From Actinomycetota bacterium (GTDB lineage Bacteria > Actinomycetota > Thermoleophilia > Solirubrobacterales > 70-9): 64,000 bases of DNA. Under the pieces are notes generated by a model, which was given only the letters and a program-made list of their open reading frames with translations, searched no databases and was not told the origin of the DNA. Positions 5,484 through 44,015 of this stretch are shown piece by piece. Made by a program: the position numbers and the translations under genes. Location of the stretch: positions 5,187 through 69,186 of the forward strand of contig JBKPIY010000005.1 of the NCBI GenBank assembly GCA_046730475.1. Reading direction: 5' to 3'. Every line of letters starts with the position of its first letter. The first letter of the stretch is position 1.

Positions 5484-5631
5484 TGACCACAGCCTACCGC
5501 AAGCAAATGTCAAGGTCCCTTGGAACCCGCGTCTCTTCCGGGCCACCGCCCCCGCGGTGACCGGGTGACCGGCCGCCCCGACCGCGACCGGCCGCGCCGG
5601 GAGGCCGGCGTTCACGTAGGCTCCCGGGCTG

Positions 5632-6708
5632 ATGGCGCTCAAGCTCGGACTCAACCTCGGCTACTGGGGGATCGGTCCCCAGGGCGACGAGGCGATCGAG
5701 ATCGTGCAGGCGGCCGAGCGGGCCGGCTACGAGTCGGTGTGGGCGGCGGAGTCCTACGGGTCCGATGCGGTCAGCGTCCTCGCCTACCTCGCGGCCAAGA
5801 CCGAGAGGATCGGGCTCGGCGCCGCCATCCTTCAGGTCCCGGCGCGGCCGCCGGCGGCCGCGGCGATGGCCGGGGTGACGATCGACGCGCTCTCGGGGGG
5901 GCGATTCATATTCGGCTTCGGGCCCTCCGGCCCCCAGGTGTCGGAGGGCTGGTACGGCGTTCCGTACGCGAAACCCTGGGGCCGAACCCGCGAGTACGTC
6001 GAGATCGTCAAGGAGATCGTCGCCCGCGAGGGTCGCCTCGAGTTCGAGGGCGAGCATTTCCACCTGCCGCTCCGCGAGGGCGAGGGCGTGACCGGGCAGG
6101 GCAAGGCCCTGAAACTCAACATCCATCCGGTTCGCAGCCGGATTCCCATCTACCTCGGCGCGATCGGGCGGAAGTCGGTTGAGCTGGCGGCCGAGATCGC
6201 CGACGGCTGGATCCCGATCTTCTTCTCGGTCGACGCGTGGAAGTCGGCGTGGGGCGAGCACATCGAAGCCGGGCTCGCGAACGGGGGGCGGTCCCGCCAG
6301 GATTTCTCCGTCTCGCCGTCGGTGCAGGTCGCGATCGACGGCGACCTGGAGGCGGCGCGGGGGATCGTGAAGGCGGGGTTGCTCCTGTACCTGGGCGGGA
6401 TGGGCTCGAAGACGACCAACTTCTACGTCGACCTCACCCACCGGTTCGGCTTCGGCGAGGCCGCCGACGAGGTCCAGTCGCTCTACCTCGAGGGCAAGCG
6501 GGAGGACGCCTACGCCGCGATCCCCGACGAGCTCGTGGATGCGACCGCGATGATCGGCACCGAGGACGAGGTCGCCGAGCGGGTGAGGCGGTTCATCGCC
6601 GAGGGCGTCGACCGGATGATCGTCTCCCCTGTTCAGGGAAGCACCGAGGAGCGGCTGCACACCCTCGAGCGTCTCGCCGACATGGTCGGGGTCGGCTCCC
6701 CGGCCTGA
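5632..6708 (+). CDS. LLM-class (luciferase-like) F420-dependent oxidoreductase
   Basis: MALKLGLNLGYWG...AERAGYESVWAAESYGSDAVSVLAYLAA...GGRFIFGFG is a typical LLM flavin/F420 oxidoreductase. Confidence 0.8.
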   Translation: MALKLGLNLGYWGIGPQGDEAIEIVQAAERAGYESVWAAESYGSDAVSVLAYLAAKTERIGLGAAILQVPARPPAAAAMAGVTIDALSGGRFIFGFGPSGPQVSEGWYGVPYAKPWGRTREYVEIVKEIVAREGRLEFEGEHFHLPLREGEGVTGQGKALKLNIHPVRSRIPIYLGAIGRKSVELAAEIADGWIPIFFSVDAWKSAWGEHIEAGLANGGRSRQDFSVSPSVQVAIDGDLEAARGIVKAGLLLYLGGMGSKTTNFYVDLTHRFGFGEAADEVQSLYLEGKREDAYAAIPDELVDATAMIGTEDEVAERVRRFIAEGVDRMIVSPVQGSTEERLHTLERLADMVGVGSPA

Positions 6709-22551: not shown

Positions 22552-22603
22552 CTCCGGCAAGTGGCGCTAAAGGCCGTGGGCCGTGCGCCCGATAGGGCAT
22601 GTG

Positions 22604-23767
22604 ATGGCGTTCGATATCGACGCGGCGCTCCGGTACGTAGTGGAGCGGGAGGGCTCGGACCTCCATATCAAGGCGGACTCGCCCCCGGTGGCGCGCGTCC
22701 ACGGTGAGCTCTTTGCGATCCCGGGCTCCGGGCCCCTGAGCGCGGAGGAGACCGAGAAGGCGTTCCACTCGATCGTGGACGGGGCGCGCCTGGCCGAGTT
22801 CGAGGAGGGCGGCGAGGTGGACTTCGCCTACGAGCTGCCCGACGTCTCCCGGTTCCGGGTCAGCGCCTTCAGGCAGCGCGGGGTGGTCTCGATCGCCCTG
22901 CGGATGATCCCCTTCTACGTGCGCACGATCGACGACCTCGGGCTGCCCGAGGTGGTGCGAACGCTCGCCGAGGAGCCCCGCGGGATCATCCTGCTCACCG
23001 GCACCACCGGCTCGGGCAAGTCGACCACCCTGGCGGCGATGATCGACCACATCAACTCGACCCGGGCCAGGCACGTGGTCACGATCGAGGACCCGATCGA
23101 GTACCTGCACCAGGACAAGCTCTCAGTCATCAACCAGCGCGAGGTGGGCTTCGACACCCGGAGCTTCAGCAAGGCGATGCGCAGGGTGCTCCGCCAGGAT
23201 CCCGACGTGATCCTGATCGGGGAGATGCGCGACGAGGAGACGGTCCGGACGGCGCTGTCGGCCGCCGAGACCGGGCACCTGGTGATGTCGACGCTCCACA
23301 CCCTGGACGCGACCGAGACGATCAACCGGATCATCGACTTCTTCCCGCCGCATCTCCAGCAGCAGGGGCGGGTGATGCTCGCCTCGACCCTGAGGGGGGC
23401 GATCTCCCAGCGGCTGGTGCCGCGCTCGGACCGCGAGGGGCGGATCGCGGTCTCGGAGGTGATGGTGGTCACCGGCCGGATCCAGGACCTGATCCTGAAC
23501 CCGGACGAGACGGGCAGGATCTCGGAGGTGATCTCCCAGGGTGACTTCTACGGCATGCAGACCTTCGACCAGGCCCTGCTCGGCTACGTCACCGATGGCC
23601 AGATCTCCGAGGAGGTGGCGATGCAGACCGCCAGCAGCCCACACGACTTCAAGTTGATGCTGGCCGCCGAGGGCCGCCGCGCCAGCGGGGTGGAGCAGCT
23701 GATCGACGACGGCGGAAACGGCGCCCCCACCGTGGACCAACGTTCGGGGTTCGGCGCCTCCTCCTAA
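22604..23767 (+). CDS. type IV pilus retraction-type ATPase, PilT/PilU family (PilU-like: lacks AIRNLIRE)
   Basis: SDLHIKADSPPVARVHGEL, Walker A LTGTTGSGKSTT, IEDPIEYLH, VILIGEMRDEETV, GHLVMSTLHT. The position corresponding to AIRNLIRE reads GRIQDLILN. ATG at 22604. Confidence 0.85.
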   Translation: MAFDIDAALRYVVEREGSDLHIKADSPPVARVHGELFAIPGSGPLSAEETEKAFHSIVDGARLAEFEEGGEVDFAYELPDVSRFRVSAFRQRGVVSIALRMIPFYVRTIDDLGLPEVVRTLAEEPRGIILLTGTTGSGKSTTLAAMIDHINSTRARHVVTIEDPIEYLHQDKLSVINQREVGFDTRSFSKAMRRVLRQDPDVILIGEMRDEETVRTALSAAETGHLVMSTLHTLDATETINRIIDFFPPHLQQQGRVMLASTLRGAISQRLVPRSDREGRIAVSEVMVVTGRIQDLILNPDETGRISEVISQGDFYGMQTFDQALLGYVTDGQISEEVAMQTASSPHDFKLMLAAEGRRASGVEQLIDDGGNGAPTVDQRSGFGASS

Positions 23768-25864: not shown

Positions 25865-27697
25865 GTGGCCCGGCCCCCTGGCCCTCGGGCCCTTCCGTTG
25901 CCCGAAGAGGGTCAGCCTGCGCAAGTGGCTCAGCCTGCGCAAGGGGCTCAGCCTGCGCAGTCGCACCCGGAGGTACCCGGTCTCTATCCCGCGAGCAGGC
26001 GGAGCTATTCCGGCCGGCTCCTGACCGACGTGATCCGGGACATGGGGCTGGCCAGCCCCGAGCGGATCGACAGCGCGATCGCGGACGCCCGCAGCGCCGG
26101 CGTTCCTCCCGAGCAGCTGCTGGTCGAGCAGTCCGTCGTTGGCAGCGAGCAGCTGGCGCGGGCAATGGCGGAGCGCTACGGGCTCGACTTCGTCGACCTC
26201 GCCGAGTTCGAGGTCGACATGACGGCCGCCAACCTGCTCTCGGTCGGCTCAGCGCGCCGCTACCAGGCGGTGCCGGTCGGCTTCCTCGAAGGGGAGGCGT
26301 TGCTGCTGGCGATGGCCGACCCGGTCAACGTGCTCGCGATCGACGACATCCAGATGATGACCGGGCTGAGATGCCGCCCCGCGGTCGCGCTCCTGGAGGA
26401 CATCGAGGCCGTGATCGGGCGCCTCAACAGCCTCCAGAGCGCCGTCTCCGAGGCGATCGAGGGCAGCGACCGCGATGGGGCGCCGGGGGCGGCGGTGAGC
26501 GAGCCATCTGCGTCGGACGTCACCGACCTCCGGGCTTCCGCCGAGGACGCCCCGGTGATCCGGCTGGTCAACAGCATCCTCGGGCAGGCCGTCACGGAGG
26601 GGGCCTCGGACGTCCACCTCGAGCCCGGCGACGGGGAGATGAGAGTCCGGTTCCGGGTCGACGGCGTCCTCTATGAGGCGGCCCACGTTCCGAAGCGGAT
26701 GGTGGCGGGCGCGATCTCGAGGGTGAAGATCATGAGCAACCTGGACATCGCCGAGAAGCGCGTGCCCCAGGGGGGGCGTACCGCCGTCATCATCGACGAG
26801 CATCGGGTCGACCTGAGGGTGACCACCCTGCCCACCCAGGGCGGCGAAGGGGCTTCGATCAGGATCCTCGACGAGGCGCAGACGTTGCGCTCGCTGGACG
26901 ATCTGGGGATGGAGGGAGACGCGCGGAAGCGCTTCGAGGCGGCCGTGGGGAACCCCTACGGCGCCGTCCTGGTCACCGGGCCGACCGGCTCGGGCAAGTC
27001 GACGACCCTGTACGCCGCCCTCCAGCTCGTCAACCACGAGAGCAGGAACATCATCACGATCGAGGATCCTGTCGAGTACCGGCTGGAAGGGGTCAACCAG
27101 ATCAACATCCGGCCCAAGGCCGGCCTAACCTTCGCCAGCGGCCTGCGCTCGGTGCTGCGAGCGGACCCCGACGTGATCATGGTCGGCGAGGTGCGCGACG
27201 GAGAGACGGCCCGGATCGCAACCGAGGCGGCGCTGACCGGCCACATGGTGCTGACCACGCTGCACACCAACGATGCCCCCGGAGCGGTGGCGCGGCTGAC
27301 CGAGATGGGAATCGAGCCGTTCCTGACCGCCTCCGCGGTCGACGCCGTCGTCGCCCAGCGGCTCGCCCGCCGGCTGTGCACGCACTGCAAGCGGCCGACC
27401 GTGATCGCCAAAGCCGTGCTCGAGGAGCAGGGGATCCCCGCCGAGGCCGACTTCGAGACATACGAGCCCGTCGGCTGCAGTCGCTGCAGTCGCCACGGCT
27501 ATGTCGGGAGGGTCGGCCTGTTCTCGGTGATGCTGATGAGCACCGAGATCAAGGAGCTCACCGTGCGGCGCGAGTCGGAGGCCGAGATCATGCGCGTGGC
27601 CCGCGCGGAGGGCATGCCGACCGTGCGCGAGGACGGGCTCGCGAAGGCGCGGGCCGGCCTCACGAGCCTCGAGGAGGTGCTCCGTGTCACCCGCTGA
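25865..27697 (+). CDS. pilB: type IV pilus assembly ATPase PilB (GspE family)
   Basis: N-terminal T2SSE_N-like helices (LARAMAERYGLDFVDL), Walker A VTGPTGSGKSTT, IEDPVEY, VIMVGEVRDGETA, GHMVLTTLHTN, tetra-Cys CTHCK...CSRCSRHGY. The start is uncertain: GTG 25865 or GTG 25925. Confidence 0.9.
   Translation: MARPPGPRALPLPEEGQPAQVAQPAQGAQPAQSHPEVPGLYPASRRSYSGRLLTDVIRDMGLASPERIDSAIADARSAGVPPEQLLVEQSVVGSEQLARAMAERYGLDFVDLAEFEVDMTAANLLSVGSARRYQAVPVGFLEGEALLLAMADPVNVLAIDDIQMMTGLRCRPAVALLEDIEAVIGRLNSLQSAVSEAIEGSDRDGAPGAAVSEPSASDVTDLRASAEDAPVIRLVNSILGQAVTEGASDVHLEPGDGEMRVRFRVDGVLYEAAHVPKRMVAGAISRVKIMSNLDIAEKRVPQGGRTAVIIDEHRVDLRVTTLPTQGGEGASIRILDEAQTLRSLDDLGMEGDARKRFEAAVGNPYGAVLVTGPTGSGKSTTLYAALQLVNHESRNIITIEDPVEYRLEGVNQINIRPKAGLTFASGLRSVLRADPDVIMVGEVRDGETARIATEAALTGHMVLTTLHTNDAPGAVARLTEMGIEPFLTASAVDAVVAQRLARRLCTHCKRPTVIAKAVLEEQGIPAEADFETYEPVGCSRCSRHGYVGRVGLFSVMLMSTEIKELTVRRESEAEIMRVARAEGMPTVREDGLAKARAGLTSLEEVLRVTR
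25911..25964 (+). repeat. three tandem copies of an 18-bp unit (CTCAGCCTGCGCAAGGGG-like) at the 5' end of pilB
   Basis: gtcagcctgcgcaagtgg / ctcagcctgcgcaagggg / ctcagcctgcgcagtcgc. Translates to (A)QPAQ(V/G/S) x3 in the pilB frame. Confidence 0.8.
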
Positions 27698-27767
27698 TCG
27701 CGGTCCGGACGGCTCGATCGAGATTCGGACTCAAGGATTTTGCCCTGGCGCCGATGGACGCTGCGAG

Positions 27768-28943
27768 ATGCGCTCGCCGCTGACAAGCATCCGCGCCCGC
27801 CGCCGCCTCGCGATGGCGCCGGGAATCCTTGCGATGGCGCTGCTGGCGGCGCCCGCGCATACGCAGGCCAACGTGCCATTCAAGCGGATCAGCTCCCCTG
27901 GCCCGATCGAGAGCATCTGGGTCGGCAACGACCTCAGCTGCCAGGCGAAGTTGACCCAGGACAGTGTCAACAGCTTCTTTCCGCCCTCGGTTGCGCCCGG
28001 GGACTGCGGGATCTTCATTGCCAGGGGAGGGGTGATCTACTCCCCGAACTGGGCGCTGCACGCCGACACCGGCGTCGTTCTCAGCTCCGCCGACGGCGTC
28101 CCGTTCACGCCGGGCAGCCAGAGCAACGTGACCGGCTCCGGGACCGCCGCCGACCCGCTCGAGCTCGTCACGGACGCGAGAATCCGGGGACTGACGGTGG
28201 AGCGCATCGACAGCTACGTAATCGGCAGCGACTCCTGGAGCATCAAGATCAGGCTGATCAACGACTCCACCTCGGACGACGTCACCGTCTACCACTCCGG
28301 CGACTGCTACCTGGCTGGCAGCGACTACGGCTACGGCGTCGCCAACGCGACAGCCGGCGCCGTCTTCTGCACCTCCACGCCCAACAACTCCCCCCCCGGC
28401 CGGGTGATCGGCTTCGGCCCCCCGGGCGCCGTCCCCAGTAGCGGCGCCGCGTTCGTGGAGGGCCATTTCTTCGACGACCTGTGGCAGAGCACCAACGGGT
28501 CCCTGTACCCGAAGGTCTGCAAGTGCACTTCCTTCATCGACAACGGTGCCGGGCTGAGCTGGGGGCGGAACGTGCCCGCCAACGGCACGGTCGAGCTGGA
28601 CCTGTCCGCCACGGTCAAGGCGCCCGCAGAGCTTGGCCTCAAGGTGCGCCCGCGACGCGCCCGGGGGAAGGTTGGCAAGACGGTCCGGTTCACGGCGGTG
28701 GTGCAGAACCGGGGGGAGCTTTCCGGAAGGGTCCGCGTGTGCGCAAAGCCGCCCAAGGCGAAGATGAAGCTGAAGGGCAGGCGCTGCCGCTCCGCCACCG
28801 TCGAGGTGGGGGCAAGCGTCAAGCGACGCTTCCGGCTCGTGCCGAAGCCAGCGGCGCGCGGCAAGCGGGTTCGCATCCGCTTCCGTGCCACCTCGCCGAA
28901 CAGCGCGGGGGCACGGGCGAAGGCGACCGTGAAGGTGAAATGA
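27768..28943 (+). CDS. secreted hypothetical protein inside the pilus locus
   Basis: Signal peptide MRSPLTSIRARRRLAMAPGILAMALLAAPAHTQA. The C-terminal roughly 100 aa form a basic Ig/CARDB-like beta domain (KTVRFTAVVQNRGELSGRVRVCA...). ATG at 27768. Confidence 0.6.
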   Translation: MRSPLTSIRARRRLAMAPGILAMALLAAPAHTQANVPFKRISSPGPIESIWVGNDLSCQAKLTQDSVNSFFPPSVAPGDCGIFIARGGVIYSPNWALHADTGVVLSSADGVPFTPGSQSNVTGSGTAADPLELVTDARIRGLTVERIDSYVIGSDSWSIKIRLINDSTSDDVTVYHSGDCYLAGSDYGYGVANATAGAVFCTSTPNNSPPGRVIGFGPPGAVPSSGAAFVEGHFFDDLWQSTNGSLYPKVCKCTSFIDNGAGLSWGRNVPANGTVELDLSATVKAPAELGLKVRPRRARGKVGKTVRFTAVVQNRGELSGRVRVCAKPPKAKMKLKGRRCRSATVEVGASVKRRFRLVPKPAARGKRVRIRFRATSPNSAGARAKATVKVK

Positions 28944-28976: not shown

Positions 28977-30071
28977 ATGGACTTCGATTTCGCACAGGTT
29001 CTGACCCAGATGGTCGAGGAGCGGGCTTCGGACGTTCACCTGACGCCCGGGTTTCCGCCGGCGATCCGAATCCGCGGACGGATTGTGCCGATGGAGGACT
29101 CCCCGGTCCTCTCCCCCCAGCAGACGCGCGACGTCGTCTACAGCATCCTCAACGACGACCAGCGCAAGCGGTTCGAGAACAACAAGCAGCTCGACTTCGC
29201 CTACTCGATCCCCGGGGTGGCCCGGTTCCGGGTCAACTGCTACTTCCAGCGCGGGGCGGTCAGCGCCGCCTTCCGCCACATCCCGACCGACATCCGCAGC
29301 CTCGAGGAGCTCGGGCTTCCGTCGGTCCTCGTCGACCTGACCCGTAAGCCGCGCGGCTTCGTGCTGGTCACCGGGCCGACCGGCTCGGGCAAGACGACCA
29401 CCCTGGCCTCGATGCTCGACATGATCAACGCCGAGCGGGCGGAGCACATCCTCACGATCGAGGACCCGATCGAGTACCTGCACAACCACCGCAAGTGCAT
29501 CGTCAACCAGCGCGAGATCGGGAACGACGCCGATGACTTCGCCCTCGCCCTGAAGGCGGCCCTGCGCCAGGACCCCGACGTGATCCTGGTCGGCGAGATG
29601 CGCGACCTGGAGACGATCTCCACCGCGCTGACGGCTGCCGAGACCGGGCACCTGGTGTTCGCCACCCTGCACACCCAGTCCGCCGCGCAGACGGTCGACC
29701 GGATCATCGACGTGTTTCCCCCTGGTCAGCAGCACCAGGTGCGGATGCAGCTCTCGATCGGGCTCCAGGGGGTCGTGACCCAACAGCTTCTCCCCACCGC
29801 CGACGGCTCCGGCCGGGTGGTCGCCGCCGAGGTGATGATCCCGACCCCGGCGATCCGGAATCTGATCCGCGAGGGCAAGACGCATCAGCTCTACTCCGCG
29901 ATTCAGACCTCGGGCGCCCTGGGCATGCAGACGATGGACGCCCATCTCGCCCAGCTCACGCGGATGGGCAAGATCACCCGCGCCCTGGCCGAGCAGCGCG
30001 CCTCGATCCCCGAGGAGCTCAAGCGGCTGCTGGTGGGGGCCTCGGAGCCGGCCGCGATCAGGGCTGCCTAG
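28977..30071 (+). CDS. pilT: twitching motility ATPase PilT
   Basis: ASDVHLTPGFPPAIRIRG, Walker A VTGPTGSGKTTT, IEDPIEYLH, GHLVFATLHT, and an intact AIRNLIREGK motif. Confidence 0.9.
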   Translation: MDFDFAQVLTQMVEERASDVHLTPGFPPAIRIRGRIVPMEDSPVLSPQQTRDVVYSILNDDQRKRFENNKQLDFAYSIPGVARFRVNCYFQRGAVSAAFRHIPTDIRSLEELGLPSVLVDLTRKPRGFVLVTGPTGSGKTTTLASMLDMINAERAEHILTIEDPIEYLHNHRKCIVNQREIGNDADDFALALKAALRQDPDVILVGEMRDLETISTALTAAETGHLVFATLHTQSAAQTVDRIIDVFPPGQQHQVRMQLSIGLQGVVTQQLLPTADGSGRVVAAEVMIPTPAIRNLIREGKTHQLYSAIQTSGALGMQTMDAHLAQLTRMGKITRALAEQRASIPEELKRLLVGASEPAAIRAA

Positions 30072-30086
30072 CGGAGGGCGGATCGG

Positions 30087-31322
30087 ATGGCTACCTACAC
30101 CTTCCGCGCAGTCGATGTCGCCGGCGTCCCGTCGCGCGGGGAGCTCGACGCCGGCTCCAAGACCCAGGTCTCGGAGAAGCTCCGAGAGCGGGGACTGATC
30201 GTCCTCGACGTCTCCGAGAAGGGGGAGTCGTTCCGGCTCGAGCGGATCGTGGAGCGGTTTCGCGGCGCCCGGCTGCGGGATCTGTCGGTGTTCTCACGGC
30301 AGTTCGCCACCCTCGTCGCCTCGGGGATGCCGATGCTGCGGGCGCTGTTCACGCTCGAGGACCAGACCGATGACGAGATGCTCAAGGACGCTGTCGTGGG
30401 CGTGCGCGAGGACGTCGCCGCCGGGAGCTCGCTGGCGTCGGCACTGGAGCGCCGCCCGAAGGTGTTCGATCCTCTCTACCGGGCGATGGTCCGAAGCGGC
30501 GAGGAGTCAGGGCGCTTGGAGGAGGCCCTCGACCGGCTCGCGTTCCACCTCGAGAAGCTCGACGCTCTGCGGCGCCAGGTTCGCTCGGCGGTCCTGTACC
30601 CGAGCTTCGTCTTCAGCTTCGCGGTCGCGGTGATGCTCGCGGTGGTGGCGTTCATCGTGCCGGTGTTCGCCGGGATCTACGAGGACATCGCGGCCGACTA
30701 TCCGGGCACGAGCGCGCAGCTGCCGCTGCCGACCCGGATCACGGTCAGCGTCTCCCACGCACTCACGCACTACTGGTACCTGATTCTGCCGGTGCTGATC
30801 CTGGCCGTGTTCGCCTTCGTCCAGGTGAAGCGGACCGACCGCGGGCGCCGGGCCTGGGACCGGTTCAAATTGCGGCTGCCGGCCAAGATCGGCGACGTGG
30901 TCCAGAAGGTCGCCCTGGCGCGCTGGTCGCGGACATTCTCGGGCGCCGTCGCCTCCGGCGTCCCGATCCTCCAGGCCGTCAAGATCACCGGCGAGACGGC
31001 CGGCAACTCCCTGATCAAGGACGCGATGGTGGACGTCTACGCCTCCGTCAAGGGCGGCGGCACGATCGCGGCGCCGATCGAGCGCAACGACATGTTCCCG
31101 GCGATGGTCACCAACATGGTCGCGGTGGGCGAGGAGTCCGGCCAGCTCGAGCAGATGCTGACGAAGATTGCCGACTTCTACGAGGCCGAGGTGGACGCCA
31201 AGGTGAAGGCGTTAACTTCGATGATCGAGCCGCTGATGATCATCTTCGTCGGCGCCGGGGTCGGCTTCATCGTGATCTCGATGTACCTGCCGATCTTCGA
31301 CCTCTACGACAAGATCCGCTGA
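30087..31322 (+). CDS. pilC: type IV pilus platform protein PilC (GspF family)
   Basis: Two GspF repeats (FSRQFATLVASGMPMLRAL... and FSGAVASGVPILQAV...), C-terminal IEPLMIIFVGAGVGFIVISMYLPIF. Confidence 0.9.
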   Translation: MATYTFRAVDVAGVPSRGELDAGSKTQVSEKLRERGLIVLDVSEKGESFRLERIVERFRGARLRDLSVFSRQFATLVASGMPMLRALFTLEDQTDDEMLKDAVVGVREDVAAGSSLASALERRPKVFDPLYRAMVRSGEESGRLEEALDRLAFHLEKLDALRRQVRSAVLYPSFVFSFAVAVMLAVVAFIVPVFAGIYEDIAADYPGTSAQLPLPTRITVSVSHALTHYWYLILPVLILAVFAFVQVKRTDRGRRAWDRFKLRLPAKIGDVVQKVALARWSRTFSGAVASGVPILQAVKITGETAGNSLIKDAMVDVYASVKGGGTIAAPIERNDMFPAMVTNMVAVGEESGQLEQMLTKIADFYEAEVDAKVKALTSMIEPLMIIFVGAGVGFIVISMYLPIFDLYDKIR

Positions 31323-31648
31323 CGGGGCCGGCCTCGCCCGTCGCCCCACCCCCGGTCCGGCCTGACGGGGACTGCCGCTGCCCGTCCGGCAAGGTGATCT
31401 CGGAAGCCGGGAGCGGACCATGCGCAGCGCCGAAAGGGTTGGCCCCGGCGCGGCAGACGCTCCCGCTCCAGGCACGAAGCGCCGAGCTATGCCGCCCGCC
31501 GTTCGGGTTAATTCGCGCCCGCCTGCGCCAGTAACGAAAATCGATGTAAACGCAGGTTCTACCTCGACAACCTAATCACTTCTTCGGGACTTGCTAAAGC
31601 GCGGGCGGGCGGCGCCGATACCCACGGTGTAAAGGAAACAGGCCAGGG

Positions 31649-31740
31649 CCCTGGTGCGAAGGGCAAACCCGTCGCGAGGCGGGGGCGCAAAGCCGACGGG
31701 GCTCCACCTCACGGGGGAGCCGGCCGGGCTGCCACCGGGG
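31649..31740 (+). promoter_or_regulatory. candidate c-di-GMP-I (GEMM-I) riboswitch aptamer in the pilA 5' leader
   Basis: P1 stem: CCCUGGUG (31649-56) pairs with CACCGGGG (31733-40). GGGCAAACC at 31661-69. Hairpin CCCGUC-GCGA-GGCGGG (31668-83) with a GNRA loop. GCGCAAAGCC at 31685-94. Second hairpin GGCUCC...GGAGCC (31700-05 / 31716-21). Order and spacing match the Vc2-type aptamer as I recall it. Confidence 0.75.
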
Positions 31741-31807
31741 TCAGACCGACACCGACTGGGAGCGAAGGGGCTCTGGCGCGACAGCAAAGGTTCACAAGGA
31801 GGTACCT

Positions 31808-32263
31808 ATGCTGGTGAAGCTCCGCCAGAGGATGGCCCAGGAGGAATCGGGCTTCACGCTCGTTGAGCTCCTGGTCGTGATGTTGATTCTCGGCCTGCTG
31901 GCCGCGATCGCGATCCCGTCCTTCTTCAACCAGAGGGACAAGGCCAAGGATGCGGATGCCAAGTCGTCGGTGCGCACTGCGCAGACGGCGATCGAGACAT
32001 ACGCTACCGATCACGACGGTAGGTACACGGGCGCAACCGCAGCGCGGCTGAAGGACATCGAGGTGACGCTGAACGACCCGCCCGGCAACACGCTTGCCGT
32101 TAACGTGCCGAGTCCCAGCGCTTACACGGTTACGGTTACATCGAAGACCGGTACCAATTTCTCGATCACCCGTGACAGCACCGGAGCGCTCACGTTTGGG
32201 TGTACTGCCCCTGATAAGGGCGGCTGCCCAGGCCCCGCCGGTGACTGGAGTGGTAACGGCTAG
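31808..32263 (+). CDS. pilA: major type IV pilin (type IVa-like)
   Basis: AAGGAGG lies 5 nt upstream of the ATG. Leader MLVKLRQRMAQEESG, then FTLVELLVVMLILGLLAAIAIPSFF (G/F cleavage site, Glu+5). C-terminal Cys pair CTAPDKGGC (disulfide loop). Confidence 0.9.
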   Translation: MLVKLRQRMAQEESGFTLVELLVVMLILGLLAAIAIPSFFNQRDKAKDADAKSSVRTAQTAIETYATDHDGRYTGATAARLKDIEVTLNDPPGNTLAVNVPSPSAYTVTVTSKTGTNFSITRDSTGALTFGCTAPDKGGCPGPAGDWSGNG

Positions 32264-32279
32264 GACCGTAGGGCGCACA

Positions 32280-32342
32280 GCGGCCTGAGGCCGCACACGG
32301 TGGACTCGAAGGGCGGCGTCTGACCCGGGGTCGCCCTTCGAG
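32280..32342 (+). terminator. two stem-loops directly after pilA (putative partial terminator/attenuator)
   Basis: GCGGCC-TGA-GGCCGC (32280-32294). CTCGAAGGGCG (32305-15) pairs with CGCCCTTCGAG (32332-42). No U-tract. Confidence 0.4.
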
Positions 32343-32364
32343 GCCCACCGACCCGAGAAATCAC

Positions 32365-32964
32365 TTGACCACTGACGACAACATTCGCCGCCGCCGCGAC
32401 CTTCGCTCCGCGAGCGGCTTCACCCTGGTGGAGCTGCTGGTGACGCTGCTGATCTTCGCGGCGATAATGGCGGCCGTCGTCCCGATCATCGTCACCGCGG
32501 TCCGCTCCGAGCCGCGGACGAGCAAGCGGGCGTACGACATCCAGCGCGGGCGGGCCGCGCTGGAGCGCATCATCCGCGACCTTCGCTCCGGCTACAGAAT
32601 CGACACCGCGCTCTCCACCCAGCTCGCCGTCAACACCTACACGCGCAAGGTCACCTGCGGGAGCGACGCCATCCTTGCTCCCGACCAGCCCGCCACCGCC
32701 TGCCGCGTCACCTACTCCTGCAGCGACGCCCAGACCCTGACCCGCTCCGAGAACCCCGTCACGGGCAGCGGCGGCAGCTCCGCCATCCTCGTCCGGGGCC
32801 TCTCCTGCACCAACGTCTTCTTCAATCGGGACGGCTCTCCCCTCGGCTCGACCGCCAGCCCCGACTACGTGCACATCAGGCTGATGTTCCCAGCCCAGGA
32901 CGGCAACGAGGAGATCACGCTCGAGGACGGCGTCGATTTCCGCAATATCACCCCGGGGGTGTGA
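32365..32964 (+). CDS. minor pilin / pseudopilin (prepilin-type N-terminal cleavage/methylation domain)
   Basis: RSASG/FTLVELLVTLLIFAAIMAAVVPIIV, TTG start. Confidence 0.8.
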   Translation: MTTDDNIRRRRDLRSASGFTLVELLVTLLIFAAIMAAVVPIIVTAVRSEPRTSKRAYDIQRGRAALERIIRDLRSGYRIDTALSTQLAVNTYTRKVTCGSDAILAPDQPATACRVTYSCSDAQTLTRSENPVTGSGGSSAILVRGLSCTNVFFNRDGSPLGSTASPDYVHIRLMFPAQDGNEEITLEDGVDFRNITPGV

Positions 32965-34379
32965 CCATGCATGAGGCGCTGACCCGCAGACGAACCCGGC
33001 TCGCGGCGCTCGGTCGAGACCAGTCGGGGATGACCATCGTCGAGCTCCTGGTCACGGCCATCCTCCTGGTGCTGGGCGCGCTCGCGATCTTCCAGGCGCT
33101 GGAGGCGGCGAGCCGCAACGGCTACCGCTCCGAGCAGAGGCAGGTAGCCCTGGACCGCGCTCAGCGCGAGCTCGAGGCGATCCGGAGCCTGCCCTACAAG
33201 GAAGTGGCGATGACCGCCGTCCCGACGGCGAGCGCCGATCAGAACGACCCCCGTAGTCGCGTCAGCGGCACCACCTTCGACCTCAACCGCAGCGGCGGCG
33301 CTCCGGCCCAGATGGTCGTGAACGGCGGCGCCCTCGACACGGGCGGCACCGTCACCGGTGGCGTGGTGGCCCCCGGGCCAGAACACTTTACGAGCGGCGA
33401 CGTCGGCGGCAACATCTACCGCTTCGTCGTCTGGCGAGACGACCCCAGCTGCCCCGCGGCGCTCTGCCCCGGCACCCAGGACCTGAAGAGGGTCGTGGTG
33501 GCGGTTCTGCTCGACAAGGTCGCGATCTCGGGCCAGCACCCCTACGTCGAGATCGCCTCCGACTTCTACAACCCCGACAGGAGCGATCTCAGCAACCCCG
33601 GACCCCCGAACCCGGGCAAGGGCGGCAAGACCACCGTGCAGCAATTCTGGCTCTCCGACACCCCCTGCTCGTCCGGCTCGACGAGTCCCGCCCGGGTGGC
33701 GCCGACCGCAGATCACCTGCTTCACAACACCCTCGGGGACTGCTCGGCCGGCCTCCGGAACGGGGGAACGGCGGGCGCCCCGGATGCGCTCCTGCCGCTT
33801 GCGCCGCCGGACACCGGTGCGCTCACCTACGACTACTCCAGCGACGCCTACCTGGAGCCGACTCCGGCGTACGCCGACCGCGGCGTGCAGATCCTGCGCC
33901 AGGACGCGAACGGCTGCTCGTACGCTCCGCAGGGGGCGACCCCGGAGGCGAAGATCCACCGCTGGGTGTCGCGGCCGGTTCCGGTGGCCTTCACGATGAC
34001 CGGCACCGCCACGCTCGAGGTCTTCTCGAAGACGATCAACAACGCCCGCCACCGCGGCAGGATGTGCGCGTATGCGTTCGTCCGCGGTCTGGTTGGTGGG
34101 CAGATCGTTGACACACCGGTGGTGAATCTCTCCACCTTGCAGCCTTACTTCACCTACTCACCGCCGGGCAACTCGGACTGGCCGCGTAACAAGTGGGACA
34201 AGATCACCATGACGATGAGATTCGACCCGAGGACGCTGTCGGTCGGTGACCGGATCGGAGTGGCGATCAGCGTCGATCGCTCGGACACCCCGGGCGACGC
34301 CCTCCAGTTCCTCTACGACCACTCCCAGTTCCCGTCGCGGTTCGAGGTCGGCACCACAACGCCAATCGGCAACGGCTAA
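32961..34379 (+). CDS. large minor pilin / pseudopilin (prepilin-type N-terminus, 472 aa)
   Basis: RDQSG/MTIVELLVTAILLVLGALAIFQALEA. GTGA overlap with the upstream minor pilin gene. Confidence 0.75.
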   Translation: MTMHEALTRRRTRLAALGRDQSGMTIVELLVTAILLVLGALAIFQALEAASRNGYRSEQRQVALDRAQRELEAIRSLPYKEVAMTAVPTASADQNDPRSRVSGTTFDLNRSGGAPAQMVVNGGALDTGGTVTGGVVAPGPEHFTSGDVGGNIYRFVVWRDDPSCPAALCPGTQDLKRVVVAVLLDKVAISGQHPYVEIASDFYNPDRSDLSNPGPPNPGKGGKTTVQQFWLSDTPCSSGSTSPARVAPTADHLLHNTLGDCSAGLRNGGTAGAPDALLPLAPPDTGALTYDYSSDAYLEPTPAYADRGVQILRQDANGCSYAPQGATPEAKIHRWVSRPVPVAFTMTGTATLEVFSKTINNARHRGRMCAYAFVRGLVGGQIVDTPVVNLSTLQPYFTYSPPGNSDWPRNKWDKITMTMRFDPRTLSVGDRIGVAISVDRSDTPGDALQFLYDHSQFPSRFEVGTTTPIGNG

Positions 34380-35140
34380 TGGCACCCCTCGCGGTGGCGG
34401 CCGGCGTCGGCGGACTGATCGCCGGCAGCTTCGTCAGCGTGGTCGCCCATCGCGTTCCGCGCGGGCTCTCGATAGTCGCCCCGCGCTCCCAATGTCCCTC
34501 CTGCGGCTCCCAGATCGCGGCGTACGACAACGTCCCGGTGCTCTCGTGGCTCGCCCTGCGGGGCCGCTGCCGGCGGTGTGGGCATGGGATCCCGGCACGC
34601 TATCCGCTCCTGGAGCTGGGCCTCGGCGCGCTGTTCGCCGCCACCGCCTTGGTCCTGCGCTCTGATCCCTTGCAGGTCGCACTCGGGCTGGTGCTGGTGG
34701 CGACCCTGGCGGCGGTGACCCTGACCGACTTGGAACGGCGGGTGATCCCGAACCGGATCCTGCTCGTGGCCGCGGCGATCGGGCTCGCGGTGATGGCGGC
34801 CGCCGATCCGGGCATCGTCCCGGGCCGCCTCGCCTGGGCGGCGGCGGCGGGAGGGGGGCTGCTGATCGTGGCGCTCGTCTACCCCCGCGGCATGGGGATG
34901 GGCGACGTCAAGCTGACCGCCTTGATGGGGCTCTACCTTGGGCGGGCGGTGGCGCCCGCGATCTTGGTGGCGCTGGCGGCGGGCGCGATCGTCGGCATCG
35001 CGCTGATGGTCCGCGACGGCGCCGGGGCCCGCAAGCGGACGGTGCCGTTCGGGCCGTTCCTCGCCCTCGGGGGAGTGGTCGGACTGCTGGTCGGCGGGTC
35101 GCTCGTCGACTGGTACTTGACCGGCTTCGCTCCCCAGTAA
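34379..35140 (+). CDS. pilD: prepilin peptidase (A24 family)
   Basis: PRSQCPSCGSQIAAYDNVPVLSWLALRGRCRRCGHGIPARYPLLEL (Zn-ribbon N-domain) and the catalytic Asp context GMGMGDVKL. One-nt overlap (TAATG) with the upstream gene. Confidence 0.9.
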   Translation: MAPLAVAAGVGGLIAGSFVSVVAHRVPRGLSIVAPRSQCPSCGSQIAAYDNVPVLSWLALRGRCRRCGHGIPARYPLLELGLGALFAATALVLRSDPLQVALGLVLVATLAAVTLTDLERRVIPNRILLVAAAIGLAVMAAADPGIVPGRLAWAAAAGGGLLIVALVYPRGMGMGDVKLTALMGLYLGRAVAPAILVALAAGAIVGIALMVRDGAGARKRTVPFGPFLALGGVVGLLVGGSLVDWYLTGFAPQ

Positions 35141-35215
35141 TCGGTAACTACGCCTTTTGGGGTAAAGCAGCCGCCGCCGCCCGCCGATGGAAGCCCGGTA
35201 AGGAGATCCGAGGGA

Positions 35216-36343
35216 ATGCTGACTAGAACAAGATCCGGCCTGGTGGGCCTCGACTTCGGCGCGGACAGCGTCGCCGCCGTTGCCGTCACCTCGAACGGCT
35301 CCCCCAAGGTGGAGCGGACGGCGATCGCCCCGCTCGAGCCGGGGCTGGTCAACGAGGGCGACGTGGTGGACGTCGCCGGGCTGGCGAGCGCCGTGCGGCG
35401 GCTGTTCGACGAGAACCGACTGTCCAAGAACGTGCGCCTCGGGGTGGCCAACCAGCGGGTCACGATGCGCACCATCCGCCTCCCTTTGATCGAGGACGAC
35501 GGCGAGCTCGACACGGCGATCCGGTTCAAGGCCCAGGACGCGATCCCGATGCCGCTCGAGAACGCCGTGCTCGACTACCAGGTGGTCGGGCGGGGCAAGG
35601 GCGAAGCCGGCGAGCGCTGGATGGACGTCGCCGCCGTTGCCGGCCGCCGCGACATGCTCTTGACCGCCGTCGAGACGCTGCGTGAGGCGGGGCTGCGCCC
35701 GGTGGGGATCGATCTCTCCGCCTTCGGGATGCTCCGCGCCCTCGCACCTTCATCGGACGGCGAGGACGCGGCGGCCCCGGCGACCCTGTACTGCCACTTC
35801 GGCGACGTCACCAACCTGGCCGTCGCCCGGGGGGCGAGCTGCCTGTTCACGCGGGTGGCCGCGTTCGGCTACGAGGACATCGTCGGGCGGCTCGCCGAGC
35901 GCTGCGCGATCCCGGTCGGGGACGCGCGCGCGGTGCTGCGCGAGGCGCGATTCAAGCCGGCCCCCGTCCAGCCCGCCTCGCCCGCGAGCGACCAGCCTTC
36001 GGAGTGGATCGCCGACCCCGGCCGGCGGCCCCGGTCGGAAGAGGGCGAGCCGGGCGAAAGCGAGGAGCGGCGGATCGCTGGGGAGCTGTTGGGGGAGGGC
36101 GCCGCCAAGCTCGCCGATGAGATCAGGCATTCGCTGGAGGCCTATGGCGCCCAGGAGGGCGCGGCGGCCGTCGATCGGCTCGTGCTCTGCGGCCCCGGCA
36201 GCACCGTTCTTGGCCTCGAGGAGCGCCTCGAGCAATCGCTCGGCTATGCGGTCGAGTCGAGGTTTCCCGCTGCCCTCGCCAGCCTCCCCGACGCCGAGGC
36301 GGCTCGAGCCCTGGTTCCCTACGGCTTGGCCCTGGAGGAGTAG
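35216..36343 (+). CDS. pilM: type IV pilus assembly protein PilM (actin-like ATPase fold)
   Basis: LVGLDFGADSVAAVAV..., AIPMPLENAVLDYQVVG, GIDLSAFGMLRAL, LVLCGPGS. AAGGAG is upstream. Confidence 0.85.
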   Translation: MLTRTRSGLVGLDFGADSVAAVAVTSNGSPKVERTAIAPLEPGLVNEGDVVDVAGLASAVRRLFDENRLSKNVRLGVANQRVTMRTIRLPLIEDDGELDTAIRFKAQDAIPMPLENAVLDYQVVGRGKGEAGERWMDVAAVAGRRDMLLTAVETLREAGLRPVGIDLSAFGMLRALAPSSDGEDAAAPATLYCHFGDVTNLAVARGASCLFTRVAAFGYEDIVGRLAERCAIPVGDARAVLREARFKPAPVQPASPASDQPSEWIADPGRRPRSEEGEPGESEERRIAGELLGEGAAKLADEIRHSLEAYGAQEGAAAVDRLVLCGPGSTVLGLEERLEQSLGYAVESRFPAALASLPDAEAARALVPYGLALEE

Positions 36344-36346
36344 GCG

Positions 36347-37078
36347 GTGCGTCCGGTCAACCTGATCCCAGGCGACCTGCGGCGCGGCCCGCGGCCCCGC
36401 GGGCGAAGCGCCTCGACCGGCTACCTGGTCATCGGGGTGATGGCGGCGCTGCTGGTCGGCGTGATCGTGCTCGTGACGACCAACAACCAGATCTCGGACC
36501 GCAAGTCCGACATCGCCCGGCTCAAGGTCGAGGAGCAGCAGGCGACGGAGCGAGCGCAGCAGCTCAGCGCCTTCACCGACTTCCGCAGCGCCGAGGAGCG
36601 CCGCACCGCGACGGTGGCCAGCCTCGCCCAGAGCCGGTTCGACTGGGAGCGGGTGATGAGGGAGCTGTCGCTGGTGCTGCCGGACAACGTTTGGCTGGTC
36701 AACCTGACGGGCACCGTCACTCCCGACGTGACCCTTGACGGCGGCGCGAGCCTTCCCACGCGGACCAGCGTCGCGGGGCCGGCCCTCGAGATCATCGGCT
36801 GCACCACCTCGCAGGACAACGTGGCCCGGTTCGTCTCGGCGCTCGAGGACATCGACGGCGCGACCAGGGTCGGGGTCCAGTCCTCGGAGCTGGGCGACTC
36901 CACCAGCCCCGAGGGAACGAGCGGCGGCGGCGGCAGCACGAGCCAGGACTGCCGCACCCGGAACTTCATCTATCAGTTCGAGATCGTGGTTGCCTTCGAC
37001 AAGGCGCCGACGCCTTCGGTCGCGACCGTGACCACCCCGGTCCCCGCCGCGACCACGACAACCGGGACGGGAGGGTGA
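36347..37078 (+). CDS. pilN: PilN-like fimbrial assembly protein
   Basis: MRPVNLIPGDL N-terminus (PilM-binding type), a single TM, coiled-coil, position immediately after pilM. Confidence 0.75.
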   Translation: MRPVNLIPGDLRRGPRPRGRSASTGYLVIGVMAALLVGVIVLVTTNNQISDRKSDIARLKVEEQQATERAQQLSAFTDFRSAEERRTATVASLAQSRFDWERVMRELSLVLPDNVWLVNLTGTVTPDVTLDGGASLPTRTSVAGPALEIIGCTTSQDNVARFVSALEDIDGATRVGVQSSELGDSTSPEGTSGGGGSTSQDCRTRNFIYQFEIVVAFDKAPTPSVATVTTPVPAATTTTGTGG

Positions 37079-42081: not shown

Positions 42082-43058
42082 CAGTTGAGCGCCGCCGCGA
42101 GGCGCTCGAGATCGGGCACCTCGAGCTGGGGCTTGAAGACGAAGGGGAGGGTCTTGACGGGGGAGGAGACCCGCCGGCGAAGGCGCTGGAGCTGGGCCCG
42201 CTGGGCCTGGGCACGGCGTTGCTCCGAGAGGGCGGCGCCGATCGCCGCGCGGGCCGGCCCCTCGGCGCTTTCCAACGCCTTTTCGAGCTCGTCGACGTCG
42301 CGCCGATCGAACCGCTCCGGGTACATCGCGTTCATGTAGACGCGGTCCACCGCGATCCCGATCTCTCCGACGAGCTGGCGCTCGAGCGAAGCCGACTCGT
42401 TCACCGGCATCTCCTCCGGCAGCGACACGATCGCGACCCCGGTGGAGTCGTGGTCGGTGATGAAGCGGTCGAGCGCCTGGGCCTGGGAGTGGATCGGCCC
42501 GACCCGGGCGATTCCGGCGAACGTGCGGGGTGTCTGGAGGAAGCCGACGCCGTGGCCGGTGGCTGGGGCGTCGACGACGACGAGGTCGTAGCCCTGACCC
42601 TTCTTCACCCTCCGGTTGAGCTGGGCGAGCTCCCAGATCTTCCCGATCGTGACCAGCTCCTTGAGCCCGGGAGTGGCGGCGGCGAGGTAGTTGAAGATCC
42701 GGGAGCGAACCAGCAGGTCGCGCATTGCCCGCACCTTGAGCTGGAGAAGCAGGTACTCGCGCATCGACTCGTCGGGATCGACCGAGATCGCCCACAGGTT
42801 GTCGGCCACCTCGACCTCGTGGAACCCGACCTTCGCCCGCCTGAACACCCGCGAGGCATTCTCCTGGGAGGAGATCTCGCAGATGATCGTCCGCTTTCCC
42901 CTCGCGGCCGCGGCGAGCCCGAGGGCGATCGAGATCGTCGACTTTCCCACCCCGCCCTTGCCGGTGACGAACACGAGCCGCTTGTCGAGAAGCTCAGGCA
43001 CCCGAACGCGCCATTCTTGCGGACAAGGGTTGCCCGGGCCCTGGCGCTTGAATCTCAT
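42081..43058 (-). CDS. ArsA/Get3-like ATPase, first of a pair (like Rv3679/BagA)
   Basis: LVFVTGKGGVGKSTISIALGLAAAARGKRTIICEISSQ (deviant Walker A), DLVVVDAPATGHG. 325 aa from the ATG at 43058. Confidence 0.8.
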   Translation of the reverse strand: MRFKRQGPGNPCPQEWRVRVPELLDKRLVFVTGKGGVGKSTISIALGLAAAARGKRTIICEISSQENASRVFRRAKVGFHEVEVADNLWAISVDPDESMREYLLLQLKVRAMRDLLVRSRIFNYLAAATPGLKELVTIGKIWELAQLNRRVKKGQGYDLVVVDAPATGHGVGFLQTPRTFAGIARVGPIHSQAQALDRFITDHDSTGVAIVSLPEEMPVNESASLERQLVGEIGIAVDRVYMNAMYPERFDRRDVDELEKALESAEGPARAAIGAALSEQRRAQAQRAQLQRLRRRVSSPVKTLPFVFKPQLEVPDLERLAAALN

Positions 43059-43097
43059 GGGGAGGAAACACGGCGCCGCCTCCGAATTAGGCCGCTG

Positions 43098-44015
43098 ATG
43101 CCGAGTTTCCGTCGCAAAGCTGCCGCTTCGCGCGCTTCCGACAGCGGGCGCCTGAGCCCCGACGAGGTGGTCGGGCCCAGGCGTGACGCCGACGGGGCGA
43201 AGCCGAAGGACGAGAAGGAGACGAACATCCCCGCCAGGAAGGCGCCCAAGCGCGCCGGGCCGGCGCAGGTGATCGCGTTCGCGAACCAGAAGGGCGGGGT
43301 GGCGAAGACCACCACCGCCCTCAACCTCGCGGTCGCCTTCAAGGAGTCCGGCCACCTGGTGCTCGCCGTGGACATGGACCCGCAGGGGAACCTGACGATG
43401 AGCCAGGGCGTCGACCCGGACAAGGTCGAGAAGAGCATGTTCGACGTCCTCGTCCACCGCCTGCCGATCACCGAGGTGATCGTCGAGCGGGAGATCGACG
43501 TTGCCGTGGCGTCAATCGATCTCGCCGGGGCCGAGATCGCAATGGCGGCCCAGATCGGGCGGGAGCGCTCCCTCCAGAAGGCGCTCGCCGAGGTCCGCGA
43601 GGACTACGACTACATCTGCATCGACACCCCGCCCAGCCTCGGCCTGCTCACCGTCAACGCTCTTACCGCCGCTGACAAGGTCATTGTTCCGGTGCAGTGC
43701 GAGTACCTGTCGATGCGTGGCCTGCTGCAGCTCCAGAACACGCTCCAGATGATCCGCGAGAACCTGAATCCCAAGGTTGAGATCGAGGGGATCCTGCCGA
43801 CGATGCTCGACTCCCGCACCGTCCACGCCAAGGAGGCCGTCGAGATCCTCGAGGAGAACTTCGGGGAGCTCGTCTTCCAGTCCCGGATCCGGAAGGCGAT
43901 CAAGTTCGCGGAGGCGCCCGTGCGCGGCACCTCGGTGCTCAAGTACGACCCGAAGAGCAAGGCGGCGGCCTCCTACCGCGACCTCGCCAAGGAGGTCCTG
44001 ACGCATGGCTCGTAA
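43098..44015 (+). CDS. ParA/Soj/MinD-family ATPase with about 55-aa basic N-terminal extension
   Basis: VIAFANQKGGVAKTTTALNLA (KGGxxK[ST] deviant Walker A), LAVDMDPQGNLT, YDYICIDTPPSLG. The start is uncertain: ATG 43098, or GTG 43269 at the latest. Confidence 0.85.
   Translation: MPSFRRKAAASRASDSGRLSPDEVVGPRRDADGAKPKDEKETNIPARKAPKRAGPAQVIAFANQKGGVAKTTTALNLAVAFKESGHLVLAVDMDPQGNLTMSQGVDPDKVEKSMFDVLVHRLPITEVIVEREIDVAVASIDLAGAEIAMAAQIGRERSLQKALAEVREDYDYICIDTPPSLGLLTVNALTAADKVIVPVQCEYLSMRGLLQLQNTLQMIRENLNPKVEIEGILPTMLDSRTVHAKEAVEILEENFGELVFQSRIRKAIKFAEAPVRGTSVLKYDPKSKAAASYRDLAKEVLTHGS

Follow-up and report, generated by a model that had tools for sequence, protein, structure and literature searches.

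A predicted class I c-di-GMP riboswitch behind a WhiG-type promoter motif in the type IV pilin leader of a Solirubrobacterales bacterium

What governs the main type IV pilin gene of a soil actinobacterium of the order Solirubrobacterales (class Thermoleophilia, phylum Actinomycetota) was examined in a 64-kb stretch of contig JBKPIY010000005.1, hereafter the window. In its pil cluster, 485 nt separate the stop of pilC (31322) from the ATG of a type IV pilin open reading frame (ORF) at 31808, and a preliminary description based on the letters alone had proposed a GEMM-I riboswitch for cyclic di-GMP (c-di-GMP) in this gap. A scan of the whole window with Rfam 15 (4227 families) returned a sole gathering-level RNA match, c-di-GMP-I (RF01051), at 31652-31736 on the forward strand. 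The match was full-length (model positions 1-87) and, at 51.5 bits (E 3.8e-7), exceeded the gathering threshold of 35, bearing out the proposed identity. The class II family RF01786, suggested as a control, was indeed negative, with nothing at E ≤ 10 in 31300-31850 and no gathering-level match window-wide. By sequence, the pilin leader carries a true class I c-di-GMP (GEMM-I) riboswitch, a member of RF01051 with c-di-GMP as the predicted ligand. We regard it as likely that this is a functional riboswitch in the 5' untranslated region (UTR) of the pilin mRNA, with the layout, the pairing competition and the inferred mechanism described below.

Is the leader conserved? Of the first 20 related loci, nine had an Rfam match to GEMM-I downstream of pilC, and an nhmmer profile of the whole leader recovered it at 39 of 80 related pilC loci. 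These 39 comprised 35 complete leaders of the same build, three cut by the end of the fetched DNA, and one (L002) with a different downstream part. Each of the 35 complete leaders ended where a type IV pilin (…GFTL[IV]ELLVV…) begins, with its ATG 154-173 nt from the conserved leader start. These orthologous leaders, all from Solirubrobacterales genomes, make up alignment A1, to which the helix columns given below refer. Two hairpins, the first capped by a GYRA loop, and the closing stem P1 meet in a three-way junction to form the aptamer, whose parts in the window, numbered after the known aptamer Vc2 where ligand contacts are concerned, are as follows:

31652-31736 (+): aptamer as matched by RF01051 (covariance model 1-87).
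31649-31656 (+): 5' strand of closing stem P1, CCCUGGUG (helix 11-18/101-108 of A1, 98.9% paired, both-side changes at 5/8 pairs).
31733-31740 (+): 3' strand of P1, CACCGGGG, pairing with 31649-31656; its GGGG at 31737-31740 lies alternatively in the linker hairpin H3.
31662 (+): unpaired G, putative equivalent of Vc2 G20 (model position 11); invariant, G23 of the first sequence of A1; an A here marks cGAMP-selective variants (PMC6140456).
31663-31688 (+): tetraloop hairpin, with pairs 31663-64/31687-88, an AAA bulge, a 6-bp stem 31668-73/31678-83 and a GCGA (GYRA) loop at 31674-31677.
31689-31691 (+): AAA junction, first and third A invariant, the second present in at least 90% of leaders; A31689 is A50 of A1.
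31691-31730 (+): second hairpin, base AGCC...GGCU and upper stem GGGGCUCC...GGAGCC (helix 54-62/92-98, 96.7% paired).
31732 (+): unpaired C, putative equivalent of Vc2 C92; invariant, C93 of A1; in Vc2 it forms a Watson-Crick pair with the second ligand guanine (PMC6140456).

P1 is thus an 8-bp stem of CCCUGGUG with CACCGGGG, and GGGCAAACC precedes the tetraloop hairpin CCCGUC-GCGA-GGCGGG at 31668-31683, whose outer pairs (31663-64/31687-88) are G-C and C-G. The tetraloop is GCGA in the window and also GUGA in orthologues, with the 11-nt receptor absent; GYRA loops without a tetraloop receptor are a known GEMM subclass (PMC1950547). The junction GCGCAAAGCC is present between the hairpins, in keeping with a GEMM junction that is "virtually always AAA" (PMC1950547). 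The second hairpin (GGCUCC...GGAGCC) carries a variable apical loop, with ACCUC at 31706-31710 in the window. All features named in the preliminary description (closing stem, both hairpins, junction, ribosome-binding sequence, ATG, 485-nt gap and ACCUC) were found where it had placed them.

The related leaders point to selection on this fold. In A1, 96.1% of structure cells were paired, compared with 34-51% when the partners were slid against each other, and 13 pairs had double changes compared with 3.3 in shuffles. Double changes occurred in all six tetraloop-stem pairs (e.g., GC:22 and AU:9 at one pair) and in five of the eight P1 pairs, so that the compensatory changes proposed as a check are present among homologous leaders in both the closing stem and the tetraloop hairpin.

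Which ligand does the aptamer recognize? Vc2 numbering was mapped by inference from the Rfam consensus and PMC6140456, and that of A47 from the difference between RF01051 (GCAAAG) and RF03167 (GCGAAG). G31662, A31689 and C31732 align to conserved consensus positions, and all three are invariant in the 35 leaders; A31689 would be the equivalent of Vc2 A47, which is a G in the RF03167 variant. The G and the C are the bases that in Vc2 contact the two ligand guanines, and a G-to-A change gives cGAMP-type specificity (PMC6140456). The earlier proposal of a G rather than an A at the specificity position holds in 35/35 leaders, but the base concerned is the middle G of GGGC (31662) and not, as had been thought, the first (31661), which is A in at least 90% of orthologues. 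Cyclic GMP-AMP (cGAMP)-selective GEMM-Ib aptamers have an A at the Vc2 G20 equivalent, where G31662 is invariant among orthologues, in keeping with c-di-GMP, and not cGAMP, as the ligand.

The family assignments could nevertheless be read as pointing to a different ligand, such as 3'3'-cGAMP or some further dinucleotide, as several orthologues fall to RF03167 (c-di-GMP-I-GGC). Among the first 20 loci, six of the nine orthologous matches reached the RF03167 gathering score and outcompeted RF01051 within the clan, and the window itself scored 49.8 bits with this model (permissive thresholds, 31300-31850). This is below the gathering score of 59, however, and the base that distinguishes RF03167 (GCGAAG vs GCAAAG) is A in the window and in 35/35 leaders. 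The RF03167 label was rejected for the orthologues because its defining G is absent from every one of them, and the high scores probably reflect the GC-rich, receptor-less GEMM-I build that they have in common with that family. Given also the G at the specificity position, unlike the A of GEMM-Ib, another ligand appears improbable.

Upstream of the aptamer, the leader begins behind a promoter motif:

31595-31621 (+): sigma-28/WhiG-type promoter, -35 TAAA at 31595-31598, 15-nt spacer, -10 GCCGATAC at 31614-31621 (TAAA-N15-GCCGATA).

The flagellar/WhiG consensus consists of a -35 TAAA, a spacer of ~15 nt and a -10 GCCGATAA, with ≤2 mismatches allowed (PMC8325347), and the window promoter (TAAA-N15-GCCGATAC) has one mismatch to it. 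With a relaxed pattern, three matches were found in the window versus 0.05 expected, all on the forward strand and all before pil genes. The motif T(A/C)AAG-N15/16-NYCGAT was present in 35/35 leaders, ending 19-21 nt before a conserved outer helix (H0), and likewise in leaders devoid of the aptamer. The cis layout of the pilin leader, in which the promoter motif ends 20 nt before H0 and the ATG lies 68 nt after P1, was the same in 35/35 leaders. If the promoter is used, transcription would start at ~31628-31631, about 12 nt before H0. Among metagenomic GEMM-I elements of the GYRA type, a sigma-28-like motif occurred ≤150 nt upstream in 7 of 11 that were pilin-linked versus 8 of 100 others.

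The two other promoter matches in the window lie at 22568-22594 (+), immediately ahead of a PilT-like ATPase ORF (22583-23767) and overlapping its annotated start, and at 35163-35189 (+), 27 nt before pilM (35216); with the pilin promoter they parallel the pil cluster of Rubrobacter, which has three WhiG promoters. The ~270 nt between the pilC stop and the pilin promoter (31323-31594) are non-coding and relatively A+T-rich at 31540-31590, just before the -35. In "group 1" leaders (L003, L006, L014, L047, L068, L076 etc.), an inverted repeat, CCCTAAGCACTATTTAGGG, stands directly before the -35 TAAAG, ~25-45 nt upstream of the -35, and a degenerate, partial copy (CCTAATCACTTCTTCGGGA) is found in the window at 31569-31589. 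The repeat could serve some regulator as an operator, or it could mark where the pilC transcript ends.

How could the aptamer be coupled to the pilin gene? The following elements surround it:

31642-31652 (+): 5' strand of outer helix H0, core GCCAGGG 31642-31648 plus CCCU 31649-31652; GCCAG is invariant in the 35 leaders.
31767-31778 (+): 3' strand of H0, GGGGCUCUGGCG, element (c); its GGGG at 31767-31770 pairs with 31649-31652 when P1 is short.
31737-31753 (+): linker hairpin H3, GGGGUC 31737-42/GACACC 31748-53 (helix 105-110/117-122, 96.6% paired, two pairs with double changes).

The core of H0 pairs GCCAGGG (31642-48) with CUCUGGC (31771-77), both strands being almost invariant, and encloses the aptamer. 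The adjoining CCCU at 31649-52 (CYYC in orthologues) has two possible partners: with GGGG at 31737-40 it completes the 8-bp P1, and with GGGG at 31767-70 it extends H0 to 11-12 bp. RNAalifold places 31649-52 in a helix with the H0 3' strand; they also fit into P1. Because this 4-nt segment is shared, long P1 and long H0 are mutually exclusive; H3 also excludes the outer 4 bp of P1, and vice versa. When transcripts ending just after H0 were folded for the 35 leaders, the state with long H0 and H3 was on average 7.7 kcal/mol more stable than that with the aptamer and long P1, and was the lower of the two in 34/35, a modelled gap that could be within reach of a tight (nM-pM) ligand. Partition functions gave a probability of H0, once the aptamer was formed, of <0.1 in 31/35 leaders, and forcing H0 raised the predicted accessibility of the initiation region by at least 0.08 in 27/35.

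In the linker between the aptamer and the H0 3' strand, L028, L029, L035, L080 and other "group 2" leaders have a conserved perfect 8-bp palindrome, CCACGTGG (within GACACCACGTGGCT), that is unable to form a hairpin alone and is absent from the window. It may bind a protein at the DNA or RNA level.

On which step would such a switch act? The start region of the pilin contains one further element:

31788-31807 (+): small hairpin around the Shine-Dalgarno (SD) sequence, AGGU 31788-91/ACCU 31804-07, with the SD in the loop and the 3' arm next to the AUG.

The SD (AAGGAGG, 31796-31802) lies 56 nt after P1, before the ATG at 31808. Equivalent SD hairpins with differing stems (AUAGGU/ACCUAU, UUGGA/UCCAA, UGGAC/GUCCA, UGAACC/GGUUCA) were found in other leaders, with or without the aptamer, and their 3' arm abuts or overlaps the AUG. 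No intrinsic terminator, that is, no hairpin with a U-run, was present in 31000-32600, in agreement with the preliminary description, which had seen none. With no terminator and the SD 56 nt downstream in a hairpin of its own, the output is most likely on translation initiation and/or mRNA stability; on these models it is probably translational. The SD hairpin may itself bind a translational regulator or act as a modest translational brake.

A direct anti-SD, formed by ACCUC in the loop of the second aptamer hairpin with GAGGU of the SD, had also been put forward. This loop is variable and ACCUC occurs in the window only. The loop-SD duplex was predicted at -8.6 kcal/mol in the window compared with -8.0 kcal/mol for shuffled loops, and it was at ≤5% in only three of 35 leaders. 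The candidate was rejected as neither conserved nor better than shuffled loops, and no conserved anti-SD of this kind was found in the 35 leaders.

The orthologous pilin leaders of ~20 sister species lack the aptamer, with at least three different internal deletion boundaries in the alignment. L033 and L050 retain the linker, L053, L074, L024 and L051 only the first aptamer bases, and in L056 almost nothing of the aptamer is left. None of them has lost the promoter, the SD hairpin, the intact SD or the pilin ORF, and in all of them H0 persists as one long, uninterrupted hairpin. Such repeated loss by internal deletion, with H0, SD hairpin and promoter kept, might mean that the aptamer in the window is a decaying relic devoid of a present regulatory role, and that the leader works through H0 and the SD hairpin only. 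The losses are clean removals, however, and not erosion; the aptamer is retained at 39/80 loci, over PilC identities down to ~54%; and the invariant ligand-contact bases together with compensating stem changes are the signature of purifying selection on the fold. A relic is hardly credible, and the aptamer is more likely part of a working switch.

For this switch, the proposed mechanism is that c-di-GMP binding would lock the long P1 and thereby weaken H0 and H3, that long H0 with H3 would prevail when the ligand is absent, and that the output would fall on translation initiation and/or mRNA stability. As to direction, OFF at high c-di-GMP is favoured, at about even chances. Since aptamer-less leaders keep the long H0 before an intact SD and ORF, long H0 should be a permissive state, and its competition with a ligand-stabilized long P1 gives a hint for OFF. 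In L002, which has no H0, the aptamer state has CCUC of the P1 5' strand paired with the SD (GAGG), and in the unconstrained fold the partner of this CCUC is GAGG of the tetraloop hairpin; as modelled, this is the layout of a classical translational OFF design. An OFF response would also have the same sign as promoter control by RsiG-(c-di-GMP)-WhiG, in which high c-di-GMP sequesters the sigma factor.

The opposite sign is possible, if doubtful. In an ON switch, ligand-bound P1 would stack coaxially on H0 to give one long 5' helix, with the H0 3' strand kept off the initiation region and/or the mRNA protected, and without ligand the aptamer strands would mispair and H0 would be lost; together with a WhiG promoter shut at high c-di-GMP, this would amount to a band-pass (incoherent) circuit. 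The state combining the aptamer, long H0 and H3 is predicted to be about as favourable energetically as the long-P1 state, as such a switch would have it. In the unconstrained fold of group-2 leaders, the P1/H0 5' strand (UGCUUCG) pairs with the 3' strand of the tetraloop hairpin (CGAGGCG) and H0 is not formed, and the aptamer could free this 5' strand; in aptamer-less leaders, H0 and the GGUG/CACC part of P1 form one continuous helix. There are also precedents: the class II riboswitch before pilA1 of Clostridioides difficile acts through a transcription terminator and turns the pilin ON. The Geobacter pilM GEMM-Ib element is an ON switch as well (PMC9262584). Against this stand the lowered probability of H0 in 31/35 leaders with the aptamer forced, the shared 4-nt segment that sets long P1 against long H0, and the design of L002, which indicates OFF; ON would moreover oppose the RsiG-WhiG logic of the sister class.

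Several observations weigh against the proposed switch as a whole, including its OFF form. Ligand binding and the expression response are predictions from sequence, and the 35 leaders, being for the most part closely related, do not give independent counts. Covariation in H0 amounts to one double change (G-C to A-U, in L015), because the helix is almost invariant. On average, the long-P1 state (-57.2 kcal/mol) is matched in predicted stability by one in which the aptamer and a 4-bp P1 coexist with long H0 and H3 (-58.9 kcal/mol), so that the ligand could bind with H0 still in place. The predicted accessibility of the SD did not change in any leader between folds with and without the aptamer forced, the accessibility change in the window was opposite in sign (0.40 with H0 vs 0.48 without), and in the large group-2 set the unconstrained ensemble formed neither H0 nor the aptamer. 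RNAalifold gave zero consensus pairs from H0 to +45, where a sequence-based alignment misses the register of the small SD hairpins. Neither whiG nor rsiG was found among the window ORFs scanned; the genes are not in the window, and that this host has and uses WhiG and RsiG is assumed from relatives.

An OFF helix between the H0 3' strand and the early codons was a further candidate, for which the partner in the window would be:

31823-31830 (+): CGCCAGAG, codons 6-8, speculative alternative partner (d) of element (c).

Pairing of CUCUGGCG in the H0 3' strand with CGCCAGAG was predicted at -17.8 kcal/mol, a value matched or beaten by 3.1% of later windows of coding sequence (CDS). It was favourable in the window and ~8 leaders, but for the majority of leaders 10-24% of other CDS windows paired equally well, the register differed between leader groups, and the helix was rejected as a general feature, which also counts against the switch. 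According to the models it may form in some leaders and is retained in that sense.

Where does this leave the relation between promoter and leader? The Rubrobacter pil cluster has three mapped WhiG promoters, piliation there is governed by RsiG-(c-di-GMP)-WhiG, and single-motif RsiG together with WhiG has been reported in Conexibacter and Patulibacter (PMC8325347); Conexibacteraceae and Patulibacteraceae are listed under Solirubrobacterales. The locus resembles the Rubrobacter system in its messenger, in the pil cluster as output, in the promoter type (TAAA / GCCGATAA) and in having three such promoters, in a sister class of basal Actinobacteria. It differs in that RsiG is a protein anti-sigma factor acting at transcription initiation, whereas the window adds an RNA sensor downstream of the same promoter type, and a riboswitch behind a WhiG-type promoter implies two c-di-GMP inputs on one gene. 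We tentatively suggest double control, first by RsiG-WhiG at the sigma-28-type promoter and then by GEMM-I in the leader, through a helix-exchange platform (outer P1 versus the enclosing helix plus linker hairpin) in a coherent feed-forward OFF circuit, which sister lineages would have repeatedly simplified by aptamer deletion. In such a circuit new transcription would stop and stable pilin mRNA already made would also be silenced, and the platform would operate without a terminator and without direct SD pairing.

Among known riboswitches, Vc2 and RF01051 are matched in the closing stem, tetraloop hairpin, AAA junction and second hairpin, in the core GGCAAAC ... CGCAAAGCC ... GCC, in the G/A/C at the ligand-contact positions, in the 5' UTR location, and in P1 as the switching element. 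Vc2 is a translational OFF switch dependent on P1, the stability of which is key to ligand binding and switching (PMC9262584). The window departs from Vc2 in that its loop is of the GYRA type and the 11-nt receptor is missing, a further conserved helix encloses the aptamer, the SD is 56 nt away and not obviously paired with an aptamer strand, and the host is a basal actinobacterium.

The pilA1 element of C. difficile is similar in being a c-di-GMP riboswitch directly before the gene for the major type IV pilin in a monoderm host; it is reportedly Cdi2_4, of the c-di-GMP-II class, described by Bordeleau and colleagues in 2015. The window differs from it, with no class II fold (no RF01786 match), no terminator, and OFF as the favoured sign. 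Control of pilA1 by a class II riboswitch (Cdi2_4) is cited in a passage of PMC6916266. The Geobacter pilM element (GEMM-Ib, 3'3'-cGAMP) has the same aptamer architecture before a type IV pilus gene (PMC9262584), but with an A at the specificity position, cGAMP as ligand and a transcriptional ON mechanism with a terminator; it precedes assembly genes and not a pilin, and its host is a proteobacterium.

GEMM-I elements were also found before pilins of other lineages in a scan of metagenomes, some of them with ordinary terminators. On the metagenome contigs L122, L138 and L168, GEMM-I precedes a different pilin type (MKRF..GFTLIELLIVIII). L122 and L138 have an upstream GCCGATA motif, and their leaders hold a hairpin with a U-run; they are apparently terminator-type pilin riboswitches of another lineage.

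How new is the arrangement? By its sequence, the riboswitch is an ordinary member of its family, detectable by any Rfam-based annotation. The preliminary description had expected a direct link of c-di-GMP to piliation in a lineage where this is little studied. That expectation was too broad, as RsiG-WhiG is already established as a means by which c-di-GMP controls type IV pili in basal Actinobacteria (PMC8325347), and pilus genes have figured among the genes associated with GEMM RNAs ever since these were discovered in 2007 (PMC1950547); the narrower point, that a riboswitch in Thermoleophilia pilin leaders is undescribed, stands for the literature searched. No paper in that literature linked a c-di-GMP riboswitch to Thermoleophilia or Rubrobacter, and riboswitches are mentioned neither in PMC8325347 (0 occurrences) nor in a 2026 follow-up preprint. 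Two more features are undescribed in the same literature, namely the position behind a WhiG-type promoter and a platform built on an enclosing helix, from which the aptamer has repeatedly been lost by clean deletion.

With this element, c-di-GMP has an RNA receptor as well in a basal actinobacterial lineage where the link to pili described previously is a protein switch, RsiG-WhiG. If the promoter assignment is true, one gene would be served by two chemically different sensors of one messenger, in series, which would offer a natural system for what a riboswitch adds to sigma-factor control (speed, and action on existing mRNA). The related genomes with an aptamer or with a clean deletion of it constitute a natural experiment on the contribution of the riboswitch.

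The genes around the leader were assigned as follows:

22583-23767 (+): further PilT-like ATPase.
25865-27697 (+): PilB-type ATPase (Pfam).
27684-28943 (+): ORF of 419 aa between pilB and pilT, G+C at third codon positions (GC3) 0.89, coding-like, no Pfam match.
28977-30071 (+): PilT-type ATPase (Pfam).
30087-31322 (+): PilC (T2SSF; Pfam).
31808-32263 (+): type IV pilin ORF, 151 aa, leader peptide MLVKLRQRMAQEESG followed by FTLVELLVV (PF07963 N_methyl, E 5.4e-7; orthologues).
32365-32964 (+): second pilin-like ORF (Pfam).
34379-35140 (+): prepilin peptidase (Pfam).
35216-36343 (+): PilM (Pfam).
36347-37078 (+): PilN (Pfam).

An identical PilC protein is present in NCBI assembly GCA_046726055.1, and the PilC relatives in the species-representative genome set, with 41-72% identity, were nearly all from metagenome-assembled genomes of Solirubrobacterales. 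No diguanylate cyclase or phosphodiesterase genes were found among the window ORFs scanned. The 419-aa ORF at 27684-28943 is an uncharacterized component of the pil cluster. In L014, L024, L075 and L076, two to three tandem pilin paralogues follow pilC, and the leader considered here precedes the first only.

Elsewhere in the window, a ParA/MinD-like ATPase with an N-terminal extension of ~350 aa (42219-44015, +) is followed by an FtsZ homologue with an extension of ~180 aa (44005-45744, +), the two ORFs overlapping by 11 nt. On the reverse strand, ORFs at 4598-5131 (-) and 5145-5654 (-) place a RES-domain ORF beside a small ORF without a Pfam match, an arrangement typical of RES-Xre toxin-antitoxin pairs.

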